64,000 nt of DNA from assembly GCA_963820525.1 (NCBI GenBank), contig CAWGAA010000001.1, forward strand, positions 352,001 through 416,000. Direction: 5' to 3'. Under the pieces are notes generated by a model. The model saw nothing but the letters and a program-made list of their open reading frames with translations. It ran no database searches and had not been told where the DNA came from. The translations under genes were made by a program, and so were the position numbers. Source of the DNA: an uncultured Spirochaetota bacterium (GTDB lineage: Bacteria; Spirochaetota; Spirochaetia; SZUA-6; Fen-1364). Of this stretch, positions 7,849 through 14,751 are shown in pieces. Each line of letters starts with the position of its first letter. The stretch's first letter is position 1.

Positions 7849-9414
7849 TTACACCTTTGACCAGTAGAAATCGCTGTCGCCGTACCTCCTGAGCTCGATT
7901 GCCTCCAAAAGGTGCGCCGTACGGATGGATTGGGAGCCTTCCAGGTCCGCGATGGTGCGCGCGATCCGGATGATGGAGTGATATGCACGCGAGGATACGG
8001 AAAGCTCACGGGCGCCCTTGATGAGATGGTGCAGGCACTCGGGGTCCAGCGGGCAGTACGTATCGAGAAGACCAGCCGGCATGCGGGCATTGCTTGAGAA
8101 ATCCTGCCCGGCGAAGCGTTTCCGCTGTATCGCGATGGCCAGCGCGACCCTCTCCCGGATCTCTTGCACTTCCTCGCGTCGGCCCGGCCTGCTCATCTCC
8201 TCCGCCGACACGGGGTCAAGCGGCACGCGGATGTCTATGCGGTCCAGGAGCGCCCCTCCGACGCGGCGCCAGTACCTGTGGATTTCCGTTGTGCTGCAGA
8301 TGCAGACGTGGCTGTCCCTGCCCAGGTTTCCGCAGGGACAGGGATTGAAGGCGAGGATGAGCTGGAAAGCGGCCGGGAACCTGACAGTAGCCCCTGCCCT
8401 GGCAATCGAAACCGCTCCATCCTCGATGGGCTCCCGAAGGCCCTGCAGAAGATCCATGCCGAACTCGGGCGCTTCGTCGAGAAAAAGCACTCCGTGATGC
8501 GCGAGGGAGACTTCTCCCGGTTTTAGAGTATGCCCGCCTCCGATTATTCCCTCATTGGATGCGGAGTGATGGGGCATGCGGAAGGGGGGCATCGTCACCA
8601 TCCCTGAGCCCGGCGCGAGGACGCCGGCGATGGAGTGGATCCTGGTCACGGCGAGCGCCTCTTCCCGTGCAAGCGGGGGAATGATGGATTTGAGGCTTCG
8701 CGCGCCCAGCGTTTTTCCGCTTCCAGGTGGGCCGAAGAGAAGGACATGATGCCTGCCCGCCGCCGCAATCTCGAGCGCCCGCTTGAGGTTGTCGTGTCCG
8801 CGGATATGGGATATATCGCAGGAGGTGTCGTCATCGATGGCTCGTGCGGCCCGCGGCGGATCATGCGTCAAAGCCTTTCGGAGCGGCGGTGATTCTCCGC
8901 GTGCTATCCGCAAGACAGCCTCCGCGGCTTCCCGCAGAGATCCGATTCCGTAAATCGATCCCTTTTCCAGTGCCACCGCCTCCTGCACGTTCTCCAGAGG
9001 CACCAGGAAGCTCCCGATCCCCTCCCCCGTGCCGGTGCCGACCGCCGAAAGCACGCCGTTTACAGGCCTTACCCTCCCCGAGAGGTTCAGCTCTCCGAGC
9101 ACCATCACGTCTTTGGCGCTTATAGGGCCGATCTGCCCCGAAGCGGCGAGGATTCCAAGGGCAACCGACAGGTCGTAGGATGCGCCTTCCTTCCTGATCC
9201 CCGCGGGGGCAAGAGAAACGAGGATGCGGTCAGCCGGAAAGGAGAAGCCGCTGTTGCGGATGGCTACGCGGACCCTTTCCTTCGACTCCCGCACGGCACC
9301 GTCCGGAAGCCCCACGATGTCGATGCCGGGAAGGCCGCGGCGGATGTCAACTTCGACGGAGACTAATCGACCTTCGACTCCGGCGGGCGCGTGGCTTGTG
9401 ATGACGGCGAGCAT
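7849..9414 (-). CDS. comM: YifB/ComM Mg-chelatase-like AAA+ ATPase
   Basis: IVGLPDGAVRESKERVR, GPPGSGKT, PFRMPHHS, FLDE, NPCPCG Zn site, IARTIADL. Confidence 0.93.
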   Translation of the reverse strand: MLAVITSHAPAGVEGRLVSVEVDIRRGLPGIDIVGLPDGAVRESKERVRVAIRNSGFSFPADRILVSLAPAGIRKEGASYDLSVALGILAASGQIGPISAKDVMVLGELNLSGRVRPVNGVLSAVGTGTGEGIGSFLVPLENVQEAVALEKGSIYGIGSLREAAEAVLRIARGESPPLRKALTHDPPRAARAIDDDTSCDISHIRGHDNLKRALEIAAAGRHHVLLFGPPGSGKTLGARSLKSIIPPLAREEALAVTRIHSIAGVLAPGSGMVTMPPFRMPHHSASNEGIIGGGHTLKPGEVSLAHHGVLFLDEAPEFGMDLLQGLREPIEDGAVSIARAGATVRFPAAFQLILAFNPCPCGNLGRDSHVCICSTTEIHRYWRRVGGALLDRIDIRVPLDPVSAEEMSRPGRREEVQEIRERVALAIAIQRKRFAGQDFSSNARMPAGLLDTYCPLDPECLHHLIKGARELSVSSRAYHSIIRIARTIADLEGSQSIRTAHLLEAIELRRYGDSDFYWSKV

Positions 9415-9444
9415 TCCCTCCCCCGTGGTGGTACAATGGGGGCG

Positions 9445-9897
9445 TCAGGAATGCCGCTTGAACTCCTCTTCCACCATCCCGTGGCACATCTCGTTGCCGT
9501 GATCTCCCGAATGCCCCATCACCCAACGCCACGAGATCGGGCGCGAGCGGGAAAGCTCCCAGAGCTCGGCCCAGAGATCGGCGTTCATCACGGGCTTCTT
9601 CGCTGTCGTCTTCCACCCGTTCCTTATCCAGGCATGGATCCACTGCGTGATCCCCTTCTGCACGTATTGGGAGTCCGTGGTGAGGGACACGGATGCCGTG
9701 CTCCAGTCGGGATGAGAGGCAAGCGCGGAGAGCGCCTCCCGAACGGCGGTGAGCTCCATGCGGTTGTTGGTTGTCCGGCTCTCGAATCCGGATTTTGAAA
9801 GGGTTTTCTCCCCCGCTCGGATCACGAACGCCCATGCTCCCGGCCCCGGGTTTCCCAGGCAGCCTCCGTCGGTGAATATCTCCACGGCTGCGCTCAC
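9445..9897 (-). CDS. rnhA: Ribonuclease HI
   Basis: FTDGGCLGNPGPG, TTNNRMEL, TDSQYV, NADLW, WVMGHSG. Confidence 0.97.
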   Translation of the reverse strand: MSAAVEIFTDGGCLGNPGPGAWAFVIRAGEKTLSKSGFESRTTNNRMELTAVREALSALASHPDWSTASVSLTTDSQYVQKGITQWIHAWIRNGWKTTAKKPVMNADLWAELWELSRSRPISWRWVMGHSGDHGNEMCHGMVEEEFKRHS

Positions 9898-12014
9898 GCC
9901 AATTGACCGCCGTCTTCGGCGCGGGATCCGGCCGCGCCCTTTCGGATTCCAGAGGGGGACGGGCGGACGGCCGGGAAGGAGAAGCTGGCCTGAACGCCTC
10001 CCAGGCTGGACACGATGTCGAGAGTCCCGTCGACCCTCTCGGCGATGAGCCGTGCGAAGTACAACCCGAGCCCCTGGTGCCCAGGCTTGGTTGTGAAGAA
10101 AGGCCGGAAGAGCTTTCTCGCCTCCGAGTCGGTGATGCCCAGGCCATTGTCTTCGATCTGGATCGTGATTCGCGAATCATTTGCCGACCCCTGCACCAGG
10201 ATCGGACTTCCGACTCCGTCCTGAGCTTCTACGGCGTTTTCCAGAACGTAGACGAAGGCGTCCACCAGCTCTTCCGGATAGCAGGAGATCTGCGCCGCAG
10301 GTTGCAGGACGGCGGAGAACCGGGCGAGGGGAAACTTCCGCCTCACCCTTTCAACGGCCGTGCGCAGGAGCACGTCGGGAGCCGTCTGCGCGGGGATCGA
10401 TACCGTCGGCCCGCAGAACGATTCCAGCACCCGGATGAAGTCGCCGAGGATGACGCTCGCCTCAACGGCCTTGTCCAGGGCGCCTGCCGACTGCGGTGAG
10501 CCGTCCGGCGCGGCCGCGGCGCTCCCGGCGTCGATGGCGATCAGGGCCGCGGCCATGTCCCGCGCCGGCTCGCGCAGCCGGGAGACCACTCCCCGCAGGA
10601 CGGCGCGAAGCTCGGAGAGCTTTCCGGCCTGGAGGGCGCGCTCCCTGTGCATAAGAGCGCGCTCGAGTGAGATCTGAAGCTGGGCGTTCTTCCGCTCGAG
10701 CTCGGCGAGGTAGCCCGGAGAGCCCCGCCTGACGCCGGCAAAGAGCGCCGAATCCGCGATGCGGATGATAAGCGATCGAAGCGGCACGAGAACGAGAAAT
10801 ATCAGGGCCGCAGCGAAAAAATCCCCCAGGGGAGGCTTCAGGTGATAGCCGCGCGCCAGGGCGTCCCTCAGCGGCAGGAACAACAGGGAGAAGAAGGCGA
10901 ACATCACCAGGAAGAGCGCGACGTAGATTGCGTAGCGGGTGAGCACGAATCTGATGTTGAAAAGGCGATGATGGGTCAGCCCGACGATCAGAAAAATCGG
11001 GATGAATGCGAGGAACACCTCCGCGAAATTGCCCAGGCTCATCCGCATGGAGGAGGCATCGCCGAGAATCAGCGGCAGCTGATCGAAGAAGAAATACGGG
11101 GGAAGGGCGATGAGCATTCCGGCGAGAATCCACAAAAGCTGCTTCTTCTCCGCCTGGGTGCCCGCCCTCAGGTATGAGCTCACCATGAGGCAGGCCCACG
11201 CGACGTAGGCGACGCCATCCGCCACGTTGTTGATCTGGCCGAGAAACCGGTAGCGCGCGTACCACTCCTCCAGGCCGCTCGCCCTCCACGCGAAGAAATC
11301 AGTCATGCGGGCGGCGACGAACGCCGTGTAGACGAGGAGGATGGCGCCGAGCAGGGAAGCGCGGAGCCAGCGGGGACCGCGCGGCTTCGGGAAATACAGC
11401 CCGGAAAGCACGAGGAGCCATGAGGTGATTTTTCCGAAATGAATGAGAAAGTTGGAGAGCGCGTTTTCGTAGTAGAAGGGCTTCACGCAGGTGAACACGA
11501 GGTAGCTGAGCGCGGCGAGCACCAGGGGCAGCGTGTAGGACTCACCGGGGATCTTGAGGGAAAGCGTGAAGGCCGTGCAGGCCAGGGCCAGGGCGAAGAT
11601 CAGGACGAATACCCAGTCGATCCGTGAAAGCATGATGGACGGCGTGATCATGACGGTGAGGATATCGCCGCCGTCCCTTCGGACCTGCACGGGAAAAGGA
11701 TCGAACCCCTTTATCCGGGAGTCCGCCTTTTCGATGTCGAGGCTTCCATGGATCGGCAGGCCGTTGACGGCGAGGATTTCATCCCGGTGCGGGATAAGTC
11801 CCGCCGCCACCGCCGGGGAAAACGGCGCCGTCGGAGAGAAGATCACGGCCCCGTCACGGACGACCACTTCGGGGTAATTGGCCACGAGGCCCGTATTCGG
11901 CTTGGCGAGAAAGCGGGCGAAGTAGACCGCGGAGACGAGGCTGAACGCCGTGCAGAGGGCCAGGAGAATGAGGACACGGCCGCGCGTGCGCAGGACGACC
12001 AGCAGATCGCGCAT
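9894..12014 (-). CDS. Membrane sensor: extracytoplasmic PDZ + multi-TM + HATPase; atypical histidine kinase lacking the H-box His
   Basis: PDZ SPAVAAGL..DEILAVNG; about 8-10 TM helices; N box VLENAVEA, G1 IEDNGLGI, F box LFRPFFTTK, G2 GLGLYFA; H-box reads GVVSRLREP. Confidence 0.85.
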   Translation of the reverse strand: MRDLLVVLRTRGRVLILLALCTAFSLVSAVYFARFLAKPNTGLVANYPEVVVRDGAVIFSPTAPFSPAVAAGLIPHRDEILAVNGLPIHGSLDIEKADSRIKGFDPFPVQVRRDGGDILTVMITPSIMLSRIDWVFVLIFALALACTAFTLSLKIPGESYTLPLVLAALSYLVFTCVKPFYYENALSNFLIHFGKITSWLLVLSGLYFPKPRGPRWLRASLLGAILLVYTAFVAARMTDFFAWRASGLEEWYARYRFLGQINNVADGVAYVAWACLMVSSYLRAGTQAEKKQLLWILAGMLIALPPYFFFDQLPLILGDASSMRMSLGNFAEVFLAFIPIFLIVGLTHHRLFNIRFVLTRYAIYVALFLVMFAFFSLLFLPLRDALARGYHLKPPLGDFFAAALIFLVLVPLRSLIIRIADSALFAGVRRGSPGYLAELERKNAQLQISLERALMHRERALQAGKLSELRAVLRGVVSRLREPARDMAAALIAIDAGSAAAAPDGSPQSAGALDKAVEASVILGDFIRVLESFCGPTVSIPAQTAPDVLLRTAVERVRRKFPLARFSAVLQPAAQISCYPEELVDAFVYVLENAVEAQDGVGSPILVQGSANDSRITIQIEDNGLGITDSEARKLFRPFFTTKPGHQGLGLYFARLIAERVDGTLDIVSSLGGVQASFSFPAVRPSPSGIRKGAAGSRAEDGGQLA

Positions 12015-12017
12015 GAT

Positions 12018-13010
12018 TTAGTCGCCCTCGCGCTGGGTGCTGGGATACAGCGGCGCCCGAACGCGATAGATCTTCTTGCCTTCGAACACGCCGGCGTGCA
12101 CGCAGAAGTCCTTCAAGACGTCAGGCACTACCCGATGGACGTCGGCCGTGAGGGTGAATCTGCCGGGCTCGGTGAACCTCTGGCCGAGGTGGAAAGCGGA
12201 GTTCAGGGCGTCGCAGATGATCCCTCCCGTCCTCTTCTCCCTGTAGATCATGGAGCCGAGGGAGAGTGCCATGCGAAACGAGAGATAGTTCGGCAGTGGG
12301 GATTCCTCGACGTCGTAGAAGGGACGCAGGAGCTGGAGACGGAAGGCGCAGACCATCGGCATGCAGATGCGCCCTCCGACGGGAAACAGAACGATCCCGC
12401 CGAAGCCGGACCACAGCCACAGCTTTCCGCCGTACGGCGAAACTCCGCGATCGATGAAGGAGCGGAAGGTATCCAGCGCATGCGCGAGGTTCTCGTGGCC
12501 GTAACGCTTCTTCATCTCCTCGGCGTCATCCACCTCGATGAAGAGGAAGTAGAACGGGTACTCCCGGCCTTCGACGATTTGAGCCCACGTGCGCGCCGCC
12601 TGTTCAAGATCGGTGACGGCGGGCTCTCCCGTCTCTCCGCGCTGCGACCGCGCATATGCCACGACCTCGCTTACCCGGGCGGCGGACAGCCCGACTTTGG
12701 CCAGGGGCTTGCCCATGTAGTCAACGGCGCCGCGCCGGAACAGGGAGGCGGGATCCGAGACGCTGCCCGTGAAATCGATCACGCCGAAGAGCACATCGGG
12801 GTTCTCCTCCATCACGCCGACGCGCCTGTTCTGCTCTCGAGGCCCGAGGCCGGCCATGTCGAGGTACACGAGGCTTCCCTTGCCGATGGTCGGAAGGTTC
12901 CGCCTGAGGGCGTCGAAGGGATATACTTCGAGGCTGAGCCCCTCGCCCGCATGCCGCGTCCTGCTCTTCAGCCACGCCTGCTTGGTCTTCGAAAAGACGA
13001 ATACTCTCAT
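12018..13010 (-). CDS. Atypical receiver domain + degenerate class III nucleotidyl cyclase domain
   Basis: REC-like LVYLD...GAVDYMGKP; cyclase-like FLFIEVDD, GGKLWLWSGFGG, FRMALSLG, DALNSAFHL; ATG 13010 overlaps the upstream TGA. Confidence 0.7.
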   Translation of the reverse strand: MRVFVFSKTKQAWLKSRTRHAGEGLSLEVYPFDALRRNLPTIGKGSLVYLDMAGLGPREQNRRVGVMEENPDVLFGVIDFTGSVSDPASLFRRGAVDYMGKPLAKVGLSAARVSEVVAYARSQRGETGEPAVTDLEQAARTWAQIVEGREYPFYFLFIEVDDAEEMKKRYGHENLAHALDTFRSFIDRGVSPYGGKLWLWSGFGGIVLFPVGGRICMPMVCAFRLQLLRPFYDVEESPLPNYLSFRMALSLGSMIYREKRTGGIICDALNSAFHLGQRFTEPGRFTLTADVHRVVPDVLKDFCVHAGVFEGKKIYRVRAPLYPSTQREGD

Positions 13011-13930
13011 CGCTTCTCCCACAGAAGGCTGTAGCGATAGAGGGGGCTGTTCTCGGGTCCCGCCACGGGCTTGAAAAACTGGGAAAGCTTCCCTCCGAGG
13101 TCCGTGTACACCCCGGGTGAGACGGTGAGGCATCCCGGCTTGGTGAACTTGGATTCCAGCTGCTCCACCCGCCTGATCGTCTCGCTGGAGGAGTCTTTTC
13201 CGCCGGAGAGGAACTTGCACGGGCCCGCGTGCACGGAAAGGCGCACGTCGAGGGGCTCCGGGAGCCGGGAGTGCAGGAGGTTGAAGAGGAAAAGCTCGTG
13301 CAGGATTTCCATGGCGCAGAGGGTGGCATGGAGGTTCTTATCCATGAAGTAGAACGCGGCGAGCCCTCCATCGCCCTCCCAGCTCCAGATGCGGCCGTTC
13401 CTCTTCTCCGCGCTCCACTGGATCAAGCTGCGCACCCGATCGAAAGCGCCGCGGACGATCTGCTGCGGGTAGGTTCGAAGCAGCTTCGTGTTCTCGACGA
13501 TGTCCGCCCGCATGAGCGCAAACTCGTAGATGTTGCCCTCCTGGAGGGTGCCCCAGCCCATCGTCTTCGCCCTTTGGGCCGATTCCACGAAGACTCTCTC
13601 CGTCTGGCTGTAGCGGTAGCCCTGCGCCTCCACCTCTGCGATGATCCGGTCGAGAAACTGGATCCGCATCGCGCGGCCCATGTCTCCGTTGTAGTGAACG
13701 TCGATGAGGGACTCAACGAGCTTCAGCAGGTAGCCTTCGCGGAGCACGTCGGAGAAGACCTGTCGCGCCGCGTCGACGCGGGGAATGGGAATGTTGGGCG
13801 GAAAGCCGGAGCGCATGTAAATGTCGTAGTCGGGGATGACCTTTTGTGCGATTCTGACGATCATGTCCACGGACAGGGAATGGGAGAGCGCCCGCACAAC
13901 GAGGTTTTCAAGCGCCGCATGGCTCATCAT
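13007..13930 (-). CDS. N-terminal helical domain + class III adenylate/guanylate cyclase-like domain
   Basis: ALMRADIVENT and WSWEGDGGLAAF (both metal Asp), VRLSVHAGP, ETIRRVEQLES; ATG 13930 overlaps the thioesterase stop. Confidence 0.8.
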   Translation of the reverse strand: MMSHAALENLVVRALSHSLSVDMIVRIAQKVIPDYDIYMRSGFPPNIPIPRVDAARQVFSDVLREGYLLKLVESLIDVHYNGDMGRAMRIQFLDRIIAEVEAQGYRYSQTERVFVESAQRAKTMGWGTLQEGNIYEFALMRADIVENTKLLRTYPQQIVRGAFDRVRSLIQWSAEKRNGRIWSWEGDGGLAAFYFMDKNLHATLCAMEILHELFLFNLLHSRLPEPLDVRLSVHAGPCKFLSGGKDSSSETIRRVEQLESKFTKPGCLTVSPGVYTDLGGKLSQFFKPVAGPENSPLYRYSLLWEKR

Positions 13931-14319
13931 GGGCTCAAGCCCTCCAGATGGAAGCGCTGGGGAAGCGGCGCTGGCCTGCCGTTCTCGTCTATGCAGGCCC
14001 ACTTCACCTCGGCTTCCGCTATCTCCTCTCCGCCGCGGAGGATTCTCTGACTGAGAACGCCGCTCAGCCGCGAGCGCTTGAGCGGCCGAGTAATGATGCG
14101 AAGCTCGTCTTCCGCCAGAGCTGGGCGCTTGTACCTGATGAGGATTTCGGCAACCAGAAAGGCGAACCCTGCGGCACGAAGCTCTTCAACGGAGAAAGAG
14201 AGGTCGCGGAGGAACCTGTGGCGGGCGAACTCGAGGTAGTTGAGGTAAACGGCATTGTTGACATGGCCATAGCTGTCGCACTCGTAGGAGCGGACGCTCA
14301 GGGTGCAGCTATGCTCCAT
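13927..14319 (-). CDS. Acyl-CoA thioesterase, 4HBT/YbgC-FadM hotdog family
   Basis: VRSYECDSYGHVNNAVYLNYLEFAR, IRYKRPA. Confidence 0.92.
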   Translation of the reverse strand: MEHSCTLSVRSYECDSYGHVNNAVYLNYLEFARHRFLRDLSFSVEELRAAGFAFLVAEILIRYKRPALAEDELRIITRPLKRSRLSGVLSQRILRGGEEIAEAEVKWACIDENGRPAPLPQRFHLEGLSP

Positions 14320-14450: not shown

Positions 14451-14480
14451 ATTCTATCGCGCATCTCATTACGCGGTCAA
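14451..14480 (-). promoter_or_regulatory. Putative sigma70 promoter of the thioesterase-cyclase operon
   Basis: TTGACC-N18-TAGAAT on the minus strand. Confidence 0.5.
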
Positions 14481-14543: not shown

Positions 14544-14616
14544 GGCGGCGTAGCTCAGATGGTAGAGCATGCGGCTCATATCCGCAGTGTCAGGGGTTCA
14601 AGTCCCTTCGCCGCTA
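14544..14616 (+). tRNA. tRNA-Met (CAT), elongator type; CCA not encoded
   Basis: GGCGGCG/CGCCGCT acceptor stem, D arm TAGCTCAGATGGTAGAGC, anticodon arm TGCGG-CTCATAT-CCGCA, T loop GGTTCAAGTCC. Confidence 0.93.
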
Positions 14617-14649: not shown

Positions 14650-14679
14650 AAAAAAGCCAGTCGCCAGACTGGCTTTTTT
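14650..14679. terminator. Bidirectional intrinsic terminator between the two tRNAs
   Basis: AAAAAA-GCCAGTC-GCCA-GACTGGC-TTTTTT. Confidence 0.9.
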
Positions 14680-14751
14680 AGCAGGGGCAGGATTTGAACC
14701 TGCGACCTCCGGGTTATGAGCCCGACGAGCTTCCAACTGCTCTACCCTGCG
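14679..14751 (-). tRNA. Initiator tRNA-fMet (CAT); CCA not encoded
   Basis: Reverse complement CGCAGGGTAGAGCAGTTGGAAGCTCGTCGGGCTCATAACCCGG...CCCTGCTA; unpaired C1:U72 and three G:C pairs in the anticodon stem. Confidence 0.95.

Follow-up and report, generated by a model that had tools for sequence, protein, structure and literature searches.

In class III nucleotide cyclases, two metal-binding aspartates and the beta4 arginine are contributed by one monomer, and an asparagine, an arginine and the beta7–beta8 lysine by the other (PMC2576301, available text). In the mammalian membrane adenylyl cyclases, with their C1 and C2 domains, and in soluble guanylyl cyclase, with its alpha and beta subunits, the metal Asp pair and the phosphate Arg lie in one subunit and the Asn, the transition-state residue and the loop Lys in the other, giving one live site and one pseudo-site (PMC2576301, PMC3591389, available parts). 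For the bacterial class III enzymes, the literature reports homodimers with two sites (PMC9552081, PMC4821796, available parts), and a fused dimeric bacterial one is stated as not known in the accessible section of PMC9552081. Clade A PycC of the Pycsar systems nevertheless carries two consecutive cyclase domains in one chain, indicating that a fused bacterial tandem exists (PMC11224242, accessible section). The one-site heterodimer has been treated as a eukaryotic design; a two-gene bacterial version would be an independent origin. Here, a candidate for such a version is described: two overlapping genes, A and B, in a stretch of 64,000 nucleotides from an uncultured Spirochaetota bacterium (assembly GCA_963820525.1, contig CAWGAA010000001.1, positions 352,001 to 416,000), which is referred to as the window and to whose first letter all positions below refer unless a locus is named.

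13007..13930, minus strand: gene A, 307 aa, an N-terminal helical domain and a predicted class III cyclase-fold domain; putative metal/triphosphate (C1-like) half
12018..13010, minus strand: gene B, 330 aa, a receiver-like domain and a predicted class III cyclase-fold domain; putative ribose/transition-state (C2-like) half

The A and B proteins are predicted to share the class III fold with the animal enzymes and distribute the catalytic residues between them in the same way, and one live site and one pseudo-site are likewise predicted. They differ from the animal enzymes in being bacterial, in being encoded by two short genes, in having His for Arg, in lacking the Lys/Asp or Glu/Cys selectors, and in carrying a receiver-like domain and a helical domain without a match in the domain libraries; no membrane anchors or haem (H-NOX) domain were seen in them. 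As judged from sequence, A/B is likened to the C1/C2 and alpha/beta cyclases but stands outside these animal families. The homodimeric bacterial enzymes CyaC, Cya2, CyaB, Rv1625c, Rv1900c and Ma1120 are the best structural matches of A and B; neither A nor B has the full residue set of the homodimer type, which is also found in a third paralogue, C. Clade A PycC (PDB 6YII; Z 16.4, root-mean-square deviation (rmsd) 3.1, 172 residues aligned) resembles A/B in having two different class III domains in a bacterial enzyme, and differs in being one chain and in belonging to a system with a TIR or membrane receptor, none of which was seen here. An original prediction, made for this locus from the DNA alone, had taken a C1/C2 division of labour to be typical of the mammalian enzymes and bacterial class III cyclases to be normally homodimers; the latter agrees with how the bacterial enzymes are described, and to the former it is to be added that paired cyclase domains are not confined to eukaryotes, being present in the two-domain chains of the clade A Pycsar cyclases (PMC11224242, accessible section). 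A literature search, in which coverage of subscription journals was poor, found neither a natural two-gene bacterial heterodimer nor a description of the A/B family. By its sequence conservation, A/B is a real, well-conserved variant of the class III cyclases for which no published description was found.

The open reading frames, motifs and ATGA overlap of that prediction are all present in the sequence, the stop codon of A at 13009–13007 overlapping the start of B at 13010, both on the minus strand. The receiver-like start of B, the 118-residue helical start of A and the unsplit third paralogue were not part of that prediction. Its claim that A and B are paralogues is upheld by BLASTP (23% identity over 201 aa, E 8e-14) and by profile–profile alignment with hhalign (probability 99.5, E 1e-22, 184 columns in register), the paralogous region being the last 185–200 residues of each protein; the predicted proteins are paralogous far beyond chance. 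A has 354 homologues at E ≤ 0.001 and B has 83, and many of them are named 'class 3 adenylate cyclase' by JGI. Searches of Pfam and NCBIfam gave no match to A or B, and PF00211 matched weakly in 4 of 118 A homologues and in none of 81 B homologues. Where source names are given, they are Spirochaetia, and the Atlas clusters are mostly Spirochaetota.

AlphaFold models of A and B have a mean predicted local distance difference test score (pLDDT) of 86.2 and 85.5, from alignments of 118 and 81 rows, respectively. The class III cyclase fold named in the original prediction is recovered, since Foldseek pairs both models with class III cyclases at E about 1e-9, which is the match on which the assignment of B rests. 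By VIA-align, A superposes on CyaC (PDB 1wc1) with Z 21.5 and rmsd 2.2 over 170 residues, and GGDEF domains score Z about 12. The Z scores for adenylyl, guanylyl and uridylyl cyclases differ by no more than about 1 unit, and the product therefore cannot be read from the fold. A and B share only 11–20% identity with solved cyclases; to fix the register at the catalytic columns, they were aligned with PDB 3mr7, Ma1120 and 12 canonical cyclases of the same genome, and the beta7–beta8 Lys column is the least secure. In this register His-274 of B occupies the position of the transition-state Arg, and Ser-183 of A and Leu-199 of B occupy that of the adenine-selecting Lys, whose absence had been pointed out in the original prediction. 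The class III catalytic fold is thus predicted to be present in both proteins. The positions concerned are as follows.

13502..13504, minus strand: A Asp143, the first of two Asp that bind metal; conserved in all 75 first genes
13370..13372, minus strand: A Asp187 (WEGDG), the second of these Asp; conserved in all 75 first genes
13241..13243, minus strand: A Arg230, beta4 triphosphate-positioning Arg; R in 75 of 75 first genes
13160..13174, minus strand: A Arg253..Gln257 at the Asn..Arg positions; Asn with His in 0 of 75 first genes
12402..12536, minus strand: B putative former metal site, the two Asp being replaced by Glu159 and Phe203, the stretch including Leu199; both Asp in 0 of 75 second genes
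12189..12203, minus strand: B Asn270..His274, His at the transition-state Arg position; all 75 second genes have N and 72 have H
12075..12077, minus strand: B Lys312 (FEG-K/R loop), aligned to the beta7–beta8 triphosphate Lys in a less secure register; R/K in 50 of 75 second genes

The codons assigned earlier to Asp-143, Asp-187 and Asn-270 (12201–12203) are correct. The counts come from 75 distinct pairs with DNA, 6 from a scan of genome contigs and 69 of the 97 adjacent pairs described below, and each gene was classed by its order in the pair and not by its residues. The complementary residue split that had been predicted for A and B is borne out by gene order: both metal Asp residues are present in all 75 first genes and in none of the second genes, and the Asn is present in all 75 second genes and in 6 first genes, none of which has Asn together with His. 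At the Asn position the first genes have mainly Lys (42), followed by Arg (7), Asn (6), Glu (6) and Asp (5). The second genes also have a Thr-Gly arm (Thr in 70 and Gly in 65 of 75) and a Ser (70), which are absent or variable in A. These residue roles match the assignment to monomers in the available text of PMC2576301, and this was counted in favour of a composite site. The catalytic residues are reciprocally partitioned between A and B as far as the alignment places them, the partition being incomplete for the phosphate Arg. Of the 75 second genes, 38 have Met, 20 Ile and 9 Phe where the adenine-selecting Lys would be, and at the second base-selector position, the Asp site, 35 have Thr, 9 have Glu and the rest have other residues. 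The pyrimidine selectors of EaPycC (F100/R142/Q144) and AnPycC (F60/K104/F109) compare with F157/L199/S201 of B, of which only the aromatic residue matches, the positions being placed only by their offset from the catalytic Asp. The mean pairwise distance across pairs is 0.59 for A and 0.65 for B; the correlation of the two distance sets (mirror-distance r 0.92) was set aside as evidence of contact, because it reflects shared descent.

The two genes are rarely found apart, as a synteny survey proposed with the original prediction has shown. In a sample of 401 genomes from the phylum, the A profile finds a match in 98 and the B profile in 97, with 9 and 52 weak matches, respectively, lying outside the list; among the matches listed, 102 A-type and 98 B-type genes were picked by score, the divergent ones by residues. 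A is followed directly by B for 97 of the 102 A-type and 97 of the 98 B-type genes, and 88 of the 401 genomes, about a fifth, carry B; the sampled genomes are kin, and so these linkage counts are not independent events. A scan of genome contigs with a single protein found six loci, all with the A–B pair. B stands beside A in 41 of 55 metagenome loci, and the remaining 14 end within 159 nucleotides of A. The spacing from the stop of A to the start of B, with starts picked roughly, is –16 to +5 nucleotides in 107 of 115 pairs and –4 in 41 of them. Five lone A genes were found, of which one, in genome G168, ends 40 nucleotides short of its contig end, one lies at a probable scaffold gap and three lie in two genomes of one family. 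In genome G080 a second pair is unlinked, with a run of N upstream of B and a matching A end behind the run, and a scaffolding break is a likely explanation on these sequence features, which would account also for the lone B gene. The family is near-universal in some families (by the A profile, 15 of 17 genomes in f19 and 11 of 11 in f23), and A-profile matches are scarce in well-sampled ones (0 of 75 in f20, 0 of 38 in f25 and 1 of 50 in f2). Genomes G328, G051, G171, G143, G334, G349, G120, G067 and G140 have two A–B pairs each, always duplicated as a pair.

The third paralogue of the same genome, C, is a solo gene at C1:2501001–2501972 of genome G000 (L001:9002–9976, plus strand). It combines the N-terminal domain of A with the full set of Asp, Asp, Asn and His, and has 333 homologues. 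The C clades take 26 of 35 solo genes on the tree; the other nine are a natural fusion (L107), L084, two A genes at contig ends, two genes at scaffold gaps and L112–L114. The first Asp, the second Asp, the Arg and the Asn are each present in all 26 C genes, and the His position has His, Lys or Arg in 21, 4 and 1 of them, respectively, so that C conserves the union of the residues kept by A and B. The interchange of His with Lys and Arg is as expected of a transition-state site. At the base-selector sites C has mostly Ser, and Arg, Ser, Asn or Lys. With a profile specific to C, scoring at most five candidates per genome and with many genomes incomplete, C is recovered from 21 genomes, of which 13 also carry the A–B pair. 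Since this profile shows no C in 75 of the 88 B-bearing genomes, C is not the usual partner. In one C subclade (L096–L099 and L111), Lys or Arg replaces the His, giving a near-canonical Asn..Arg pair. The flanks of C hold open reading frames named from their translations as aminotransferase-like and small flavin-binding-like, and a plasmid search with C matched only distant ordinary cyclases.

A FastTree phylogeny of 195 domains, from which L107 and one outgroup were excluded, places all 75 first genes and six solo A-like genes in one branch (support 95) and 74 of the 75 second genes in another (support 98), with C in separate branches. Eleven canonical cyclases of the genome fall outside the A/B/C family (support 100). 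One origin of the split fits this tree.

In one genome the two halves appear to have been joined. At L107:4273–5244 (minus strand; contig C6 of genome G331), an in-frame deletion of 969 nucleotides joins the first half of A to the second half of B at a homologous Gly-Gly-Leu motif, giving a single gene with Asp, Asp, Asn and His. The locus is collinear with L020 of a genome of the same genus except for the 969-nucleotide gap. The joined form is present in one 15,285-nucleotide contig from run X1 at a depth of 17, with an ambiguity of 2 nucleotides at the junction, and the run shows no real cover of the skipped part; X1 may be the source of the genome, and so this contig counts as a second assembly and not as an independent sample. 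The undeleted form is seen in relatives in runs X3 and X4, of which X4 may be the source of L020. No RNA holder is listed for L107. At the level of sequence, the fusion shows that the A and B halves are in register and recombinable.

These observations lead to the hypothesis, to which a probability of about 0.6 is assigned, that A and B form a heterodimer with one composite catalytic site making a 3',5'-cyclic nucleotide. A and B would pair head-to-tail; A would supply Asp-143 and Asp-187, which bind two metals, and Arg-230, and B would supply Asn-270, His-274 in place of the usual Arg, Lys-312 and the base pocket. A nucleoside triphosphate would be converted to its 3',5'-cyclic nucleotide at this site, and the mirror site, in which Glu-159 and Phe-203 of B face Arg-253 and Gln-257 of A, would be dead or regulatory. 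The helical domain of A and the atypical receiver of B may act as two inputs that gate the one site. On prior grounds only, cyclic AMP (cAMP) would be the likeliest product; the absence of the Lys/Asp and Glu/Cys base selectors makes a relaxed or unusual specificity possible. The pair probably arose once, by duplication of a C-like self-sufficient gene followed by reciprocal loss; because the deepest branches of the tree are long and poorly resolved, the order of events and the C-like ancestry are suggested by residue parsimony. The predicted fold, the residue split, the linkage, paralogue C and the one fusion are observed, and binding, catalysis, product, regulation and this order of events are all inferred. 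The original prediction had proposed an obligate A/B heterodimer with one composite site; the fold, the split and the linkage behind that proposal are now more strongly supported, through C and the natural fusion, and its suggestion of a non-canonical product or a nucleotide-binding switch is neither strengthened nor weakened. A site of this kind is feasible, because engineered D300A and R376A monomers of Rv1625c regain activity when they are co-expressed (PMC4821796, available part). The genome also has 26 matches to cyclic nucleotide monophosphate (cNMP)-binding domains, which were counted for a cyclic-nucleotide product. C and the natural fusion would make testable, in small proteins, what is gained from giving up one active site, and A/B/C could show whether His replaces the transition-state Arg and which base a selector-less pocket picks.

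Several observations weigh against the composite-site heterodimer. Arg or Lys stands at the beta4 triphosphate Arg site in 61 of 75 B proteins and Lys or Arg at the Asn site in 49 of 75 A proteins, and so the second site may not be dead. Neither the Lys/Asp pair for adenine nor the Glu/Cys pair for guanine was found in the 75 A/B pairs or the 26 C genes, and the literature search found no report of a catalytic His at the transition-state Arg position. Active cyclases lacking the Asn exist (Ma1120, which keeps the Arg, PMC4215837; Rv1900c, PMC4886424; available parts). With 15 PF00211 matches, the genome does not need the A/B pair for cAMP. The fusion represents one population and comes from a single run, possibly the source of the genome itself, and the phylogeny was obtained with FastTree only and does not place the root among A, B and C, its basal branches being long. 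The solo A-like genes L112–L114 and the half-site genes L084 and L189, from two genomes of one family, have no adjacent partner in view. These unlinked half-site paralogues lie at L112:588–1505, L113:3629–4231, L114:4129–4725, L084:3914–4678 and L189:1–651; among the unlinked paralogues of the two genomes, copies with the N-terminal domain have lost one or both Asp residues, and short copies have both Asp residues and no Asn/His. By their residues, they are possibly a second, unlinked split.

The alternative that survives best, although it is itself unlikely, is that the A:B heterodimer does form and that its composite site only binds a nucleoside triphosphate or hydrolyses it slowly, acting as a conformational switch from which no cyclic nucleotide is released. 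The replacement of Arg by His in B and most C proteins, the lack of a base selector, the degeneracy of the neighbouring kinase-like protein and of the B receiver, and the many canonical cyclases already in the genome are consistent with such a switch, as is the title of PDB 6yii, 'adenylyl cyclase-like ATP-binding protein'. However, the 75 pairs show no exception to the two metal Asp residues, the phosphate Arg or the Asn, all of which occur together in the 26 C genes, the His interchanges with Lys and Arg in C, and the accessible section of PMC11224242 counts 6yii among the clade A PycC cyclases.

A bolder extrapolation from the same residues, regarded as rather improbable, is that A, B and C form a spirochaete-specific class III branch with an Asn..His pair and a new base pocket, in which the product of A:B would be other than cAMP or cyclic GMP, or a mixture, and the pair would serve as a coincidence detector for two non-phosphorylating inputs. 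If so, A+B as the duplicated state, C as the unsplit state and the L107 fusion as the re-fused state would form a living series for the evolution of C1/C2 asymmetry.

The Lys or Arg at the Asn position in 49 of the 75 first genes, with Asn itself in 6, would also suit an A protein that is active alone as a homodimer, B being a pseudo-cyclase that inhibits or tunes A through its receiver. The active Asn-less cyclases (PMC4215837, PMC4886424, available parts) and the three solo A-like genes L112–L114 point in the same direction. This reading is nonetheless doubtful: the position is Asp, Glu, Gln, Thr, Ala, Val, Ser, Met, Asn or another residue in the remaining 26 of 75, three features common to B and C (Thr-Gly arm, His/Arg and loop Lys) are missing from A, and an inhibitor would have little reason to keep the Asn in 75 of 75 B proteins.

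Tandem duplicates can remain linked through descent alone, and A and B could in principle be co-transcribed relics of such a duplication that act separately or with other partners. The exact reciprocal retention of interface-site residues, the coupled spacing, the absence of C from 75 of 88 genomes and the near absence of lone B genes make this very unlikely.

That A and B are in effect a two-gene clade A PycC making a cyclic pyrimidine for antiphage defence is most improbable, because, despite a weak PADLOC match to PycC (A, E 2.6e-5 over 74 of 226 profile positions; C, E 1.8e-8; none for B), the two cyclase domains of clade A PycC (PMC11224242, accessible section) and the missing purine selectors, no cNMP-binding TIR or membrane effector was found among 25 recurrent neighbour open reading frames scanned (the flanks of L008–L067 being only 1.5 kb), which are housekeeping or transport genes or have no match, the pair is near-universal in families such as f19 and f23, A has no plasmid match and no viral match, PycC structures rank no higher than purine cyclases in VIA-align, and of the PycC selector residues compared above, placed by offset, only the aromatic one is shared.

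The putative inputs to the composite site of the A:B heterodimer, and the genes around the pair, are the following.

13577..13930, minus strand: A N-terminal domain, residues 1–118, modelled as six helices plus a hairpin and belonging to no known family
12639..13010, minus strand: B receiver-like domain, atypical; weak response-regulator matches (best E 0.0095) and an AlphaFold model
13927..14319, minus strand: YbgC-like thioesterase, ATGA-coupled upstream of A; a neighbour in the near clade only
9894..12014, minus strand: HATPase kinase-like protein, PDZ-like and with a hydrophobic middle; starts 3 nucleotides after B
14451..14480, minus strand: sigma-70-like promoter match upstream of the thioesterase–A–B run; a consensus match only

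Comparison of residues 1–118 of A with the Atlas, PDB sequences, Pfam and PADLOC gave nothing consistent, which shows neither a new fold nor an absence of relatives. The idea of an EAD/death-like or AbiJ N-terminal domain gained no support. C, too, begins with this domain, which four further genomes carry fused to HATPase-like proteins (L183:3207–4412, L184:3482–4663, L185:3616–4782 and L186:3504–4637); its presence on A, C and these proteins suggests a movable signalling input. The C-terminal part of L183–L186, which is read as a HATPase from its N-box- and G-box-like motifs, has two homologues in the genome of A and B (C2:669318–670892 and C1:3045362–3046849), and Pfam and NCBIfam searches gave no support for the HATPase reading of this part.

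The N-terminus of B has the five beta-alpha pattern of a receiver, with Asp-51 at the phospho-acceptor position at the end of beta3 (Asp in 61, Glu in 2 and a gap in 12 of 75). In this it is like the atypical (pseudo-) receivers, and its acidic pocket, Thr/Ser and Lys are poorly kept. Against the receiver consensus (an acidic pair at beta1, Thr/Ser at beta4 and Lys at beta5), with the register checked against three response-regulator-like open reading frames of the genome, the beta1 acidic pair is degenerate (Ser/Thr, then Asp in 29 or Asn in 11 of 75), Asp-79 stands at the beta4 Thr/Ser site in 61 of 75, and the residue at Lys-101 in beta5 is Lys in 34 of 75.

In the kinase-like protein that follows B, the H-box His is absent in 11 of 11 aligned homologues. 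Among metagenome loci long enough to include it, 16 of 24 carry the protein, and no retrieved locus of other families does. By its sequence and distribution it may be a clade-specific, non-phosphorylating partner, possibly a pseudo-kinase beside the atypical receiver of B. Neither the thioesterase nor the kinase-like gene was accepted as a core part of the system, and no phylum-wide conserved neighbour was found among the 45 clusters listed. Convergent tRNA-Met (CAT) genes at 14544–14616 (plus strand) and 14679–14751 (minus strand) lie just upstream of the thioesterase–A–B run. RNase H and a ComM-like Mg-chelatase ATPase lie on the same strand as the pair at 7849–9897 (minus strand), and the ATPase is near the pair in 15 near-clade loci.

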